DNA of 64,000 nucleotides from a plasmid. How positions within the stretch are numbered: position 1 is the stretch's first letter; each line of letters starts with the position of its first letter. The position numbers were made by a program. Positions 54,001 through 60,000 of the stretch are shown here, piece by piece. Location of the stretch: assembly GCF_054482595.1 (NCBI RefSeq), contig NZ_JBTHVH010000004.1; one strand, written 5' to 3'.

Positions 54001-57000
54001 ATATGCCAGATATATATATTAAGTTTAACGATACATTTGATGGGAACGGGGCGTTATATTGTGACAATGATGCCCTCATATCCCTCTATACCGATGTTGC
54101 TTCAATTATCAATGTGCCGGTGATGATGGAAGTAAGATTGATCAATAAAAGAGGGCGTGTTGTCTGTGATTCTTCGCATTCAACTTACGTATCTCTCGAA
54201 AGTAATGACCGATACAGAGTAACTGATCGCACATTACTAATAACTGAAGCTTTTGACGATTTTCGTAACGCGTCTCAATGATCCTTTTGCTTCAGTCCAA
54301 AAAAGTAACTTTGGTTGGCTGAAGACACTTGTCTATGACAATGTAAAATCTGTCGCTGGCATCTTCTTTTAGCTTAACCAAATTTTTATCTAACCCAGTG
54401 GGGAAGTCGCTTCCCTTCTGGGGCACTTCCTCTCAAATTCGAGGTAGTGTATATGACACATTCATCTGATGATAAAAACTATGTCCGAGCAGTTCTGAGT
54501 TATCTTGGCATAGATTTTGATGAGGCGGATATAGTATTAAGTGTTTGCCATTGTCAAAGTGACGAGCTTTCTTTTACCTGTAATATCAAAGCTATTGAAC
54601 TCAAGAATGTTGTTGATTTATATGTCGATAGTATCTCTGAGAATGAAATAGAAGCTTTAAACAGAGAATCTTTAAAATCGCGACTCTGTTACTTTCTTGA
54701 GGTGTTTGACGCAGTCTCTGGTCAGTACCTTGAAATTTCAGGAAAACACTTTGCAACTAGTCGTTTTGAATATGATGATGTTTGTAGTGAAGTTCTTAGC
54801 ATGTCTAATGATGTTTCTCAGTCGAAAGGTTATGACCGGGATGAATATAACAGACTGATGCAGGTTGATGGTCAGGTTATGATTGCCCGTTTTGCTTTGC
54901 AACAGTTCTGGGATACTCATTTTATTGGACTAATAACATTTGTATCTGAGTCTATAACATCGAGCCTCTATAAAGCTTATGAAACTTTTAGTGATATTAG
55001 TTTGGCTTGCTATAAACTGAGTGAATATTCTTATTCACGCTCTATCAACAGTGAATTGACCCTTAATATTTCACTTAAAGAAAATGACTTCTGTGAGGAC
55101 CTATCTGATTGCTATATGGAAGATGAGGCTTTACCTTCTGGTAGGGTAATTTCTCGACGCAACAATGACTCCATAATAAGTATTTATGAGAGCTATGCTG
55201 CGGCTTCTTATATTCCGATGATTGCATCTTTGGAAGTCGTTGATGAATACGGCGAAGTGGTTACTGACCTCTGCCATACCGTTTATGTTTCAGAGTTAAC
55301 CGGTGGGCGGATTAAAATCCACGACCGTAATGACTTAGTATCTGAAGTTTTCGATAACCTAAGAAATTTAAATCTTGCAGTTGGAGATTCAGTTTCACAA
55401 GCTGCTTGATTCTTTCCCTGATTTTGATTTTTTCTCACATACTCTTATGGCACGGTTTCCGTGCCTTTTTTTTGCCTCGCTTACAAGCGTCTACTCCTCT
55501 TCTACCTATCCCACCTTACATCACCACTTAAAATCTATCTTTCTAATTCCATTATCCTTTTCGTAGCCTCTAATGCTCTGGTATGAACATACTCTTTAAA
55601 CTCAAAAAAGTGCTATTAACGAAAAAAAATCCCTAAAGAGATTTGTATACTGTTCTCAACCAAGGAGAGCTCATGAATGAACTAAAATCCAAAAACGAGA
55701 ACAGTACCAAAAGCAACTTTCCCCCGGTTGATAATCAGTTTTGCTTTTACCATGTTGATTTCAGCATAGAACGACTACTTTCTACGGCCGAGGATCTCCA
55801 GCTTGAGTACATCTTCCAGAAACCTGGAAGTGAAGTAAGAAAGGATTTGGTTGAGCGATTCGAACGTGGAGAGCGCTTTGTTACAGCTTCACACTGTGAC
55901 AATTTCTGTGAAATCCTTGGTTGTCAAGGCCATCAGGAAAATGCATAAACCCATAAACCTACATTTCCACTTTTAAGGATGTTCACTAAAGAATGATTGG
56001 AGAAAGTATTTTTGACTGGGTAATTTACGGAATATCCATTTTGATATTTGCCTCAGCACTAATTGAAGGAAAGACAACTCGCTACCCAGCACTTTTTTTC
56101 TATGGGAGTTTAATTTTAATGTTAATCCTGATAGTTGCTGGAGGCCTTAACTGGTGGTTCTACAGGTCAAAATATGGCGCAGTAATCGTTATCTTCACAG
56201 TGGTTTCTTTACTGATGACTCGATTCCGCCTGGTCATATATAAATTAAGATTAAGAAAGTTAGTTTCAGAGATCAGATTTCGTATAAAAACGGGTTTTCG
56301 TATAATTCTTGTTTTGTCGGATAATGAGGATGAGCGTAATGTTCTGCTGTCTATGCTTAGCAACGTATTGCCAGAGCAAACGCTTATTCACACGCGTGAT
56401 GCTCTCGGACCTCATTCAGGGCCTATCCTAAAAGCTCTTGAGCTACATCATCAACAGGGAACAGGTTACATACTCGTCTGTGAACAACAAATCTCAGCGC
56501 GTACGTGGTTGAGTATCGTAGAAAATGGGAAACCTGATACATCTATAGCTGTTAATTTTCATTCGATCCCAGAAATGGAGTGATTTTTCAATGAGTAGAA
56601 CCGTTTCACAAAGTGTCACAGAAGATTGTCTTTTTGATACCCGCACACAAGTCAGATTACAACTAAGTCGAAGCGTTCATAAAACGCTGGCATCTGCTAA
56701 AGAAATTTTACAGGGAAGGGGGGTTGATTCGGTCTCTATTGAAGATCTTGTGCGAGCCTGTCTTGAAGAGAACCAGCCAATTGATCTCGCCTCACTTTAC
56801 CTTGAAAATCTCTTAAAACAGAAAGGTACCAGCATTTGCGATTTTTAGTGTTTTCAAACCTATTAGATAAAATGCCGGTTGTGTTTATATAACATCAATA
56901 ATTTCATGCAACAGGTAAAACATGAGTACTCAAAAGCAACTTTCCAGAACAACCGGCACTGAACGTATGTTTAAGGAAGAGCTGGCGTTATCCTTAATTT

Positions 57001-60000
57001 GTTGGGTTTTCACCAGTCCATTTACCAACTGGACCGATAAAGTCTTCAGTGGTATTGAAGTTCCGTCTGAAGGACCGTCAACATTACTGGGTGAGGCTGA
57101 AAAATTCTTTCGTTTTGTCGTTAATGAAGAAGGCTACGACGCAGGAAGGGCTGCTCTTGGTCTTGACCTATGTTGTTTTTCACTTCCGTCGTGTTTGTTC
57201 CCGGACGCTGCCCTGTCTGAGGAAGAGGTTATGAGTAAGTTAACCGGAGAAGTTATCCATGGGATTCTTCTTTCCTTACCTGAATTTATTGATATGCCAG
57301 AAGTGCTCGCTTACCAGGTCAGGGATGAAATTCTTGCTTTTAACACTCGCTGTGGAGACGGGATCTTTCATGGTTGGAACACGGCTTCAGAATTGTGGAA
57401 GTTTGAAATCTTTCCCCGCACCACCATCATGATGCAGCATACTTCGGCAATACATTAAAATTAGGCGGGGCAGAATGCATAAAAAACTTTTTCTTCTCGA
57501 ATGGAAACCCTGTCAGAGCCGCGTATGGGCCGGTTGGATGGCCCTGTGGTTGACTATCAGTTTTCTGATGTTATCTGCCTTGCTTATGACAGATCATCTC
57601 CTGAACAAAGTCATCCTGCCGCCAACATGGTTGTTGATCTGGTTTTCGCCAATGCTGGGGTTTTTGATAAAAGTTCGCGTCGTCGAAACTCAACATTTCC
57701 TGGAGCATGACCTCTGTGTTGCAGGTTTCTCTTTTTACCGCTGGAAGAGGTTAGTTTCTCCCGGGCTTTGGTCAGTTGACTGTATAAATGGTCGTTTTCG
57801 CCTCAATCGGATCACCCAGGTGGGTAAGACTATCCACTATCCATGGCGTCTCCATTATCATCCTTTGTTCATGAGCCCTATCGAACATAAATCGCATGCT
57901 GTGAAAGCTGTTTCAAAATGACTTCTTTAGAGGTTTACATGACATTTATGTTCTGCAAGGTCAGCCAGGGCAGCAAAATTGATTTGAAATAACATGAGCC
58001 TGGAGAAACGTATGAGTTATGACGATTTGCCCTATTTTCGTGACCAGATTCTGGAACGTATCGACTCGCTTAAGTGTTTTCTTTCGAACACCCCCCCGCT
58101 GATGGCAAACCTGATGACTGTCTCCACCGTATCTCGAACAGAAGAGCGACTGAAGCAGGTTAAACCCATCAGGGTTAGTGTTAAAGACGATGCTTCGGTT
58201 GAGGAAATTATTCAGGCACTTACTGACATCTGTGTGGATGACATAGAGTCATTAAGTCATGATTCCACCAAAGTGACCACTAAATACCCGGGTCTTATCA
58301 TTGTCCCAGAAAGAGCAGATCTTCTCGAAAGCTTGATCACATCTATAAATGAAGCAAAAAATGATTTTGCTGCGGCAATGAGGCGTATCGATAATAAAAA
58401 GAATGTCCGTTTTGATAAAGTGCACAAGAAGCTCCCGGGCCTTGTCGCTATGCACTCAACAAGAAATGTCCTTTTCATCAAGTCCCAGCTTAAAAAAGTT
58501 ACTTTTTCATGGCGGCTAAACCGAAACCAGGAAGTTAAAACAGCAGAGCAACTTGTGAGTTTGTTGGAGCGCAGGAGAGCCTCAGAAGTAAAAAATGTAG
58601 CAACTACCAATTTGAATGTCGTGTCTAATATCGATAAGGCTTTACACCGTCTTGAATTTCACCCACTGAAGCAGGGCGAATCTTATCGCCTTTGTCGAAC
58701 TAACTCTTTCCCTGTTCCGATTGCTCACATTTTTGCATTTAGGCCTGAAGGGCAGGAACGAAACGGGAATAAATATGCTGAGACTGATTATTCAGTAGTA
58801 AAAGCATCCTTGCCCATTTTCGCAGCAGGCAACATACCTCAATTAAAAACGCTCTCTGACTGGGCTCCTGAAAACAGCCAGGGCCCGTCCAACCAACGGA
58901 AGCTGAGCCTGAAATATACAGAACTCGTGCCGGGGGCTGAGCTGGGCATTTTCATTGTCAGCCCCGAAAATTAAGGAACAACAATGCAATGGATTTCCAC
59001 AGCCAGCCAGAAAATCGATGAGCGTCTCTATCGTGTCTGCGTCTGGGTAAAAAAATATCACGCTGATGCGATTAACCGCGTTGTGCTTACCGTTGATCTA
59101 AGTAAAGCCCGACATGACCCTGACGAGGACCAGGTAAGAGCAGAGCTGCTGTGCGGCCATTATTTTTTGCTTCGTAAGGAAAACGCTTCGAACTCTGCGC
59201 CTGACGATCAAAAGTTTGCTTTCCTGCCTGACGGGCGCAATCTGTGTTGGCAGACCGCAACCCCGGTGCTTCAGCATCTCCTGCTCAATAAAAACGTTCC
59301 TGAGTCGCTGAGGTTGCTTACGGACTACATACATATGCGTCTGGCCAGGCTGACAATGGTACCAATGTCCGGAACCATCATGAACGAGGCTCTGCTGGAC
59401 AGCATCAGCTGGGTTAAGGTGGATTTGACCTACTTCTGGCAGTACGAACAGCTCAGCTCTCATCTGGGACCCATCCAGATAACCCACAAGGCACTAGTAC
59501 GCTTCGGGCATCTGGCAAAGAATGATGAAAACTCCAGTGCCATAAGAATCCTGCGTCAGCGTCTGTCTTCAGAATTCTTACAAGAATTTCAGATGGCTGA
59601 GGATGAGCTAAAGCGCAAACAGTCGTTGATGGGCACCATGGACGTGAAAATGCTGTTTCATGCTCATTACCCCAGCCAGAAGATGCTGGTGGCTCGATAT
59701 AAAAATGGTTGGGTAATGGTGGATTGTTTTCTGTTTCATCATACCAAACCTAAGAAAAAAGCAAAAAACAAAACTACTGTGGCTAAGCCTCAACTTAAAG
59801 ATACAAATTATAAATACTCTCAAGTGTATATTCAGTATGGGATTGCGCAATGATTGCCTAATAAAATTTCTGAAATATTTCTGTATCGCATAATTTTTTA
59901 TATCAGATAAATTGTACTGGATTTCTTAAAAAATTGCAGTATAATTGCCGCAATTATCCCACCGTTTATTTTTTTAATAGTTTCTCATGATGCAGCATAC

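Follow-up and report, generated by a model that had tools for sequence, protein, structure and literature searches.

The seven small genes that lie immediately upstream of mcr-1 on a plasmid contig (NZ_JBTHVH010000004.1, NCBI RefSeq assembly GCF_054482595.1) are, judged by comparison with relatives free of mcr, IncHI2 core backbone. They occupy positions 55643/55673-59853 of the window, by which we mean the whole stretch of 64,000 nucleotides (nt) that was analysed, and are numbered here as genes 1 to 7. The explanation which accounts best for the whole region, and to which we assign a probability of approximately 0.8, is a core IncHI2 backbone module which contains a homologue of Tus (gene 6) and which later received an insertion of mcr-1 and pap2. 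For the more limited statement that the block is backbone and that mcr-1 was inserted into gene 7, there is hardly any room for doubt. A preliminary description made from the sequence alone had left it unclear whether the genes are plasmid backbone or part of an acquired island, and had regarded conserved backbone functions as the contrary outcome. This is largely what emerged, with the block being core IncHI2 backbone and one of its genes belonging to the Tus family. The region is thus neither a new island nor a cargo system linked to mcr-1; it is ordinary, previously sequenced and partly annotated plasmid backbone, and as such already known.

The comparison with mcr-negative relatives, proposed in the same description, found the block both in R478 and in pD90-1. 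In R478 (NC_005211.1), the mcr-free IncHI2 reference plasmid, the same genes are present in the same order at 53,554-57,770, and R478 28224-57680 is collinear with window 30336-59799 at 98.85% nucleotide identity. R478 57682-59274 then corresponds to window 62406-63998, and the empty site is at R478 57680/57682. An IncHI2 plasmid without mcr, pD90-1, is also uninterrupted across the site, since window 47642-~59801 and 62406-64000 abut there. Several proteins of R478 and pD90-1 are found under an identical RefSeq accession. The neighbours of the block in R478 are alike as well, with a toprim/paralogue region upstream and a tyrosine recombinase and hha downstream, hha being the next gene after the recombinase in both R478 and pD90-1. 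R478 differs from the window in having an intact gene 7 of 301 amino acids (aa) which overlaps gene 8, and in the absence of mcr-1-pap2; elsewhere, the window differs from it by an IS2-like element and an IS1. Collinearity with R478, presence in mcr-negative relatives and orthologous gene order in sister IncH groups, as expected for IncHI2 core backbone, were all found.

A megablast search with 55643-59986 against 72,556 plasmids showed how widespread the block is: 1,117 records cover 80% or more of the query, and nearly all of them are large conjugative plasmids from Escherichia, Salmonella, Enterobacter, Klebsiella and their relatives. Most of these matches break off where the query reaches the mcr-1 cassette (position 4157-4165), and the exact junction without ISApl1 was found in 35 records only. 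Since the site is empty in R478 and pD90-1 and the block is common in plasmids lacking the junction, mcr-1-pap2 is the newcomer.

The inserted cassette (~59802-62405, plus strand) consists of mcr-1.1 (59987-61612) followed by pap2 (61660-62406), and forms a unit of approximately 2.6 kb within an otherwise continuous target, as expected for a Tn6330 cassette; the MCR-1 protein of the window is identical to MCR-1.1. The left junction between backbone and cassette is at 59801/59802, 52 nt inside the open reading frame (ORF) of gene 7. Each of the two junctions is ambiguous by 1-2 nt. No copy of ISApl1 flanking the cassette was found in the window. In pKP14052-MCR-1 an identical 2.6-kb mcr-1.1-pap2 segment is present at the same backbone site, but with ISApl1 upstream of mcr-1. 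Therefore, the window harbours an ISApl1-less derivative, a remnant of Tn6330 (ISApl1-mcr-1-pap2-ISApl1) that has lost both ISApl1 copies. Unlike Tn6330, this insertion sits in the 3' tail of a backbone gene and creates a chimeric ORF.

The seven genes do not simply end at the cassette, as had been described, since the cassette sits inside gene 7 and an eighth backbone gene (gene 8) resumes behind it at 62430-62774. The insertion lies in the last 88 nt of native gene 7, and 29 native residues gave way to 17 residues encoded by the cassette. The resulting gene 7 (58984-59853, plus strand) encodes 289 aa and is identical to the native protein of 301 aa through residue 272; this chimeric form corresponds to a database cluster of 79 sequences. 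The removed residues are all located in a Lys-rich tail predicted to be disordered, and the folded core of gene 7 is untouched by this later Tn6330-type insertion. The insertion also separates gene 7 from gene 8. Natively, gene 8 begins within gene 7 and shares 65 nt with its 3' end, while in the window it starts 23 nt after the stop codon of pap2, with its ribosome-binding site intact. In one IncHI2 lineage (the 35 records with the identical junction), mcr-1-pap2 is found in the tail of the best-conserved gene of the block. As cassette and block point in the same direction, transcription from backbone promoters may continue into mcr-1, and that of pap2 into gene 8.

A direct repeat of 19 nt without mismatch, TCATGATGCAGCATACTTC, is present at 57427-57445 and 59985-60003, so that the 3' end of gene 4 (...IMMQHTSAIH, then stop) matches the start of mcr-1 (MMQHTS...). 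A shared origin of the two was rejected: the 19-mer is native to the mcr-free plasmids R478 and pD90-1, and the C-terminus of gene 4 is also conserved in IncHI1. On this comparison the repeat is a coincidence. Still, it could mediate a deletion of 2.56 kb, by which gene 5, tus and gene 7 would be lost and gene 4 would be fused to mcr-1.

ORF calling confirmed seven co-oriented ORFs on the plus strand and the tight spacing that had been described, with 44, 7, 73, 16, 72 and 9 nt between consecutive ORFs. Gene 1 (55673-55948) encodes a small acidic soluble protein of 91 aa. Its ORF reaches a TTG codon at 55643, where the block had been said to begin; the ATG at 55673 is the more likely start, because it is preceded by an AAGGAG ribosome-binding site and because RefSeq calls the same 91-aa start, whereas the remainder of the span up to 59853 stands. 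It is followed by gene 2 (55993-56583), encoding a membrane protein of 196 aa, gene 3 (56591-56848), encoding a small soluble protein of 85 aa, gene 4 (56922-57458) and gene 5 (57475-57921), encoding a membrane protein of 148 aa with two transmembrane segments. The hydropathy profiles, with three hydrophobic segments in gene 2 and two in gene 5, agree with the earlier count of two membrane proteins among the seven. Gene 6 (57994-58974) encodes the Tus homologue of 326 aa, or of 320 aa if translated from the ATG at 58012. Gene 8, also on the plus strand, encodes a further membrane protein (114 aa, two transmembrane segments), and is followed by a convergent gene for a tyrosine recombinase with a Phage_integrase domain (62796-63980, minus strand).

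The block had also been seen as the continuation of a same-strand block starting at 38.6 kb. The orientation is indeed the same, but a terminator-like hairpin on the plus strand (55449-55475, GGCACGG-TTT-CCGTGCC followed by T8) separates gene 1 from the upstream paralogue array, the last gene of which ends at 55409. Such a strong hairpin with T8 in front of gene 1 suggests that the block is probably a separate transcription unit despite its co-orientation with the upstream genes, and that the hairpin probably marks the 5' limit of this unit.

The gene order recurs in pHCM1, pNDM-CIT, pNDM-MAR, the Logan metagenome contig L008 and the Raoultella plasmid pWLK-238550. It comprises a gene for a toprim protein, a gene for a protein of approximately 175 aa, a variable paralogue array, genes 1-5, tus, gene 7 and gene 8. 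The module is thus flanked by the toprim-protein region at one side and by the convergent tyrosine recombinase and hha at the other. The opposite-strand recombinase borders the module on the right in every IncH-type plasmid examined; hha follows it in five plasmid records and was not seen on the Logan contig. We conclude from this synteny that genes 1-8 are a module with an order kept across IncH-type (MOBH/MPF_F) plasmids. Between IncHI2 and IncHI1, the protein identity for genes 1 to 8 is 46, 63, 65, 57, 57, 59, 79 and 76%, respectively. All seven ORFs have intact IncHI1 orthologues (46-79% aa identity) with saturated synonymous sites and a nonsynonymous divergence (dN) of 0.14-0.52. Since the synonymous divergence (dS) is saturated at such dN values, all eight genes are under purifying selection.

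The region between gene 5 and tus differs among lineages. An extra gene encoding 202-217 aa is present there in pNDM-CIT and in the Logan contig (L005 8403-9011 and L008 5379-6032), and the two copies are homologous to each other (28% identity, E 1e-21). IncHI2 plasmids are without it, and therefore the number of seven genes is a lineage-specific count. In pHCM1 an ORF of 91 aa is found at this place, while the IncHI2 gap consists of a 72-nt spacer with a 16-nt inverted repeat straddling the stop codon of gene 5 (57883-57898/57938-57953).

These comparisons decide against two alternative views of the block. One of them holds that the seven genes are an acquired island which arrived with the mcr-1 cassette or served as its landing pad. 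It could be based on the fact that the genes adjoin mcr-1 on the same strand, that they were unannotated, and that the G+C content climbs from ~0.38 to 0.49 along the block. Yet the block is present in mcr-free R478, in pD90-1 and in ~1,100 plasmids, as compared to 35 with the junction. Further, IncHI1 and pNDM-MAR-type plasmids share the orthologous order, with protein identities of 20-79%, and the matches of IncI2 and IncX4 plasmids to the cassette start only at window ~59791. The empty site in R478 and pD90-1 refutes this view, the probability of which we consider negligible. According to the other, genes 1, 3 and 5 are chance ORFs in AT-rich backbone DNA, and it is true that they are short, domain-less and without an experimental record. 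Against this, five divergent plasmid lineages have intact orthologues of matching length in an unchanged order, and protein motifs are conserved despite saturated synonymous sites. It is thus highly improbable, if slightly less so than the island, and on the grounds of conservation we regard all seven ORFs as real genes.

The profile searches that had been proposed revealed one recognisable domain in the block. Scans of the eight proteins against Pfam, NCBIfam, PHROGs and PADLOC gave only a Tus match, for gene 6, while genes 1-5 and 7 were without a family match. Thus, the statement that no domains are recognisable holds at the sequence level for genes 1-5 and 7, and fails for gene 6, which matches the Pfam family Ter (PF05472) with E 4.6e-19 and 69 bits (cut-off 22) over residues 20-217. 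RefSeq names it 'DNA replication terminus site-binding protein', and a tus gene together with a potential ter site was named on the IncHI2 plasmid pSTM6-275 (PMC5923156). The length of gene 6 is similar to that of E. coli Tus (PF05472; PDB 1ECR/2I06), with 320-326 aa compared to 309 aa, while the match spans only approximately the first two-thirds of the Ter model. When the two proteins are aligned directly, little similarity is seen (26% identity over 88 residues; phmmer against PDB, E 0.08). The Tus-like orthologues are 59% identical in IncHI1 and ~25% identical in pNDM-MAR-type Klebsiella plasmids. Also unlike E. coli Tus, gene 6 is plasmid-borne and part of an IncH-specific module of eight genes; plasmid-borne tus genes as such are common (PMC6549158). 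Taken together, gene 6 is very probably a member of the Tus family.

An alignment of six sequences was inspected for the residues of the Tus lock (E49, F140, H144, G149 and R198 in E. coli Tus), and their conservation was largely borne out. E49, K89, P95/G96, H144, F170 and W172 of E. coli Tus are invariant, and only the pNDM-MAR protein is without F140. The IncHI1 and IncHI2 proteins have G149 while the orthologues of pNDM-MAR and of the Logan contig do not, and R198 falls in an unalignable gap. Four of these residues (E49, F140, H144 and G149) are key to arresting forks and to keeping the flipped C6 base in place (PMC10331603 Table 1). This pattern suggests that gene 6 is plausibly a divergent Tus member retaining the lock mechanism.

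Of the genes in the block, gene 7 is conserved best, with 79% identity to IncHI1. Searches of large databases with gene 7 returned only IncH-type orphans, all unnamed hypothetical proteins; by a profile search of 1.84 billion representatives the family grew to 49 proteins, and no Pfam domain was found in any of the 29 family members that were aligned. An AlphaFold2 model calculated from the family alignment has an overall predicted local distance difference test score (pLDDT) of 81; most of residues 1-250 exceed 90, and residues 261-301 stay under 50. In the model, the order of secondary structures fits an RNase H-like N-terminal domain (~1-142), the fold topology of which agrees with RNase H, and a putative RelE/ParE-like C-terminal domain (~165-250). 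Gene 7 is without a sequence-level match to the RNase H-like or to the RelE/ParE (BECR) families, and the pairing of these two predicted folds was not seen as a single protein among the structural matches. The residues kept in the family are T6, E48, E54, G84 and R119 in the first domain, and G162, T167, K/H169, R173, R193, K212 and H226 in the second.

The distance between tus and gene 7 is 9 nt in the window, while in pNDM-MAR, the Logan contig and pWLK-238550 the two genes share 4 nt, which suggests that their expression is coupled. A fusion of gene 7 and gene 8 with 394 aa (P0003) is also represented in the databases, by a cluster of 44 sequences. It arises from a change of 1 nt in an A-rich tract of Lys codons, AAGAAAAAAGCAAAAAAC (window 59748-59765), leading into the +1 frame of gene 8. 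Either a sequencing error in the homopolymer or a genuine variant could account for the fusion. Programmed frameshifting was considered and dismissed, since gene 8 is in the +1 and not in the -1 frame, and since an indel of 1 nt in the A-run is a simpler explanation.

Genes 1-5 appear, from their distribution, to be IncH-restricted orphans. Gene 1 was found only in IncH plasmids and has a conserved C-terminal motif, C..F...GC.GH; it also matched two PHROGs that have no known function (best E 0.0033), and these matches were disregarded as noise. The gene 2 family, also found only in IncH plasmids, has three N-terminal transmembrane segments and a conserved cytoplasmic domain of approximately 100 aa, which is predicted, from the pattern of the sequence alone, to be alpha/beta. 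Large-database searches with gene 4 and gene 2 returned only unnamed hypothetical proteins of the IncH type, and PDB sequence profile searches with genes 2 and 3 gave nothing significant. Gene 3 resembles only the first helices of TetR_N below threshold (E 0.076), a match set aside as noise like that of gene 7 to Alpha-E (E 0.12); a DNA-binding role of gene 3 would be a guess.

From the Tus homologue and its neighbourhood we infer that the most likely role of the module is in plasmid replication termination or maintenance, beside a tyrosine recombinase. The Tus homologue would bind one or more ter sites of the plasmid and arrest replication forks in a polar way. Such arrest may confine termination of a large plasmid with two replicons, or prevent over-replication and the formation of multimers, and the adjacent tyrosine recombinase could then be the resolution partner of the Tus homologue. 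Gene 7 is a possible nucleic-acid-binding partner, because it seems to be translationally coupled to tus in several lineages and because of its RNase H-like and RelE-like predicted folds. Genes 2, 5 and 8 might be membrane-anchored accessory factors. The plasmids R1 and R6K carry Ter sites and use the Tus protein of the host; unlike them, IncH plasmids encode their own divergent Tus. The fork traps of R1 and R6K, which enforce direction or prevent over-replication, are a precedent for the proposed role (PMC10331603). Another is the plasmid-derived tus of the second chromosome of Pseudoalteromonas, as a fork barrier serving plasmid replication, and chromosomal tus is seen as domesticated from plasmids (PMC6549158). 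A fork-arrest role of gene 6 has slightly less than even chances, and it seems rather unlikely that the eight genes act as one functional unit.

Several observations weigh against this proposal. Gene 6 is ~18% identical to E. coli Tus, and in NCBIfam it stays below the equivalog cut-offs of NF002810 and TIGR02648 (53 vs 323 and 21 vs 178 bits, respectively); it is therefore a divergent homologue and not an equivalog. E. coli-type Ter motifs (16-mer consensus, GTTGTAAC core) occur in the window at chance frequency only, the two GTTGTAAC cores present there being both in the wrong context, and neither the window nor R478 yielded a Ter of the GTTGTAAC type with G6. A scan of all 274,762 bp of R478 with a position weight matrix gave one marginal candidate, GATATTTAAGTTGTAACTAATAT at 188,981, in which T replaces the essential G6 and the score of which is within the range of shuffled sequences; at the sensitivity of blastn it is conserved only within IncHI2. 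A motif common to the regions upstream of tus was not found in five lineages. The tus gene is not located at the maximum of the R478 GC skew (~166 kb); the minimum of the cumulative skew is at 0-2 kb, beside a RepB-family initiator gene (R478 1-876). In gene 7, the catalytic carboxylates expected from DEDD or DDE enzymes are missing: T6 is found on beta-1, there is no conserved Asp after beta-4, and only the acidic residues E48 and E54 of alpha-1 are conserved among the RNase H catalytic positions. Very distant homologues of gene 7 are found on mobile DNA without tus. Finally, the operon structure of the block is something we infer from the gene arrangement, and the roles of genes 1-5 and 8 in a Tus module are conjectural. 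The cognate site of the divergent gene 6 protein may differ from E. coli Ter.

The candidate GATATTTAAGTTGTAACTAATAT lies outside the window at R478 188,981-189,003 (L015 38981-39003), in the Tra1 region near trhY. It is ~23 kb away from the GC-skew maximum at 166 kb. Although it is the best Ter-like sequence of R478 and shares 15 nt with TerJ of E. coli, the essential position 6 is occupied by T, and the match is not statistically significant.

The tus-less homologues of gene 7 are located on the Logan contigs L009-L011. They have 246 aa and ~20% identity to gene 7, and one of them is accompanied by mercury-resistance and resolvase genes. Therefore, the family combining an RNase H-like with a RelE-like fold is broader than the Tus module.

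The same observations can be read differently. The protein of gene 6 could have the Tus fold without being the terminator of its own plasmid, serving instead as a sequence-specific DNA-binding regulator or acting on host or rival replicons or in conjugative DNA processing, with unrelated orphans as neighbours. That no ter site was found in the window, in R478 and upstream of tus would be explained in this way, as would the strong divergence from chromosomal Tus, the loss of G149 in two orthologues and of F140 in one of them, and the position of tus away from the skew extreme. On the other hand, the four residues kept in IncHI1 and IncHI2 are those needed for fork arrest and not for mere DNA binding (PMC10331603), and plasmid fork traps as in R1 and R6K are established. 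We consider this alternative unlikely, though it is the most serious one. It is clearly less probable that gene 7 and its small neighbours are a toxin-antitoxin, addiction or defence module located next to tus by chance. The conserved basic and His residues in the C-terminal part of gene 7 (K/H169, R173, R193, K212 and H226) and its distant homologues on other mobile elements without tus are in line with a toxin, but the RelE-like structural scores are modest, neither a PADLOC match nor a Pfam match in the 29 family members was obtained, and no antitoxin-like partner was identified. Moreover, gene 7 is tightly linked and apparently translationally coupled to tus in all IncH lineages examined.

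Going beyond a Tus homologue that arrests forks, it is tempting to speculate that all eight genes are an IncH-specific termination and maintenance machine, the Tus of which reads a ter sequence unlike that of E. coli. Gene 7 and the three small membrane proteins would then help to arrest forks and perhaps tether them to the membrane, and arrest would take place beside the resolution site of the plasmid tyrosine recombinase. We regard this as improbable. If true, such a machine would correspond on plasmids to the Tus-Ter/dif organisation of the chromosomal terminus, and might even be its precursor. Already in the more modest version, IncH plasmids have a Tus homologue of their own with the lock residues kept, and functional study of an IncH-wide Tus module has apparently not been undertaken. 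Further, a structural hypothesis is now available for gene 7. Control of termination or multimer resolution by the Tus module, if demonstrated, could bear on the stability of large multidrug-resistance plasmids.

Additional features of the window were noted outside the block. Directly upstream of it, at ~50404-55409, five tandem genes encode proteins of approximately 300 aa each without a Pfam domain. These paralogues have 14-19% mutual identity; they are present in IncHI1 and IncHI2, with two copies in L008, and are absent from pNDM-MAR. The array is preceded, at ~43250-49540 (R478 41137-47415), by a conserved cluster of backbone genes for an AAA ATPase, a DUF3150 protein, a VWA protein, a small ORF and a DUF7146/Toprim protein. 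The part from DUF3150 to Toprim recurs in pNDM-MAR, and the small ORF and the Toprim gene in pWLK-238550.

An IS1 element with the InsA and InsB ORFs (29571-30335) interrupts rsp in its 3' part, leaving an ORF of 1260 codons, compared to 1434 in R478. RSP is reported to be required for IncHI conjugation (PMC6764697), and the transfer of the plasmid may thus be impaired by this truncation. A second difference from R478 is an IS3-family (IS2-like) element at 22462-23790, at the end of the ORF downstream of parM. Finally, the region at ~12000-15100, between a TraC-family gene and parA, contains diverged internal repeats, with many self-matches of 76-89% when compared to R478.

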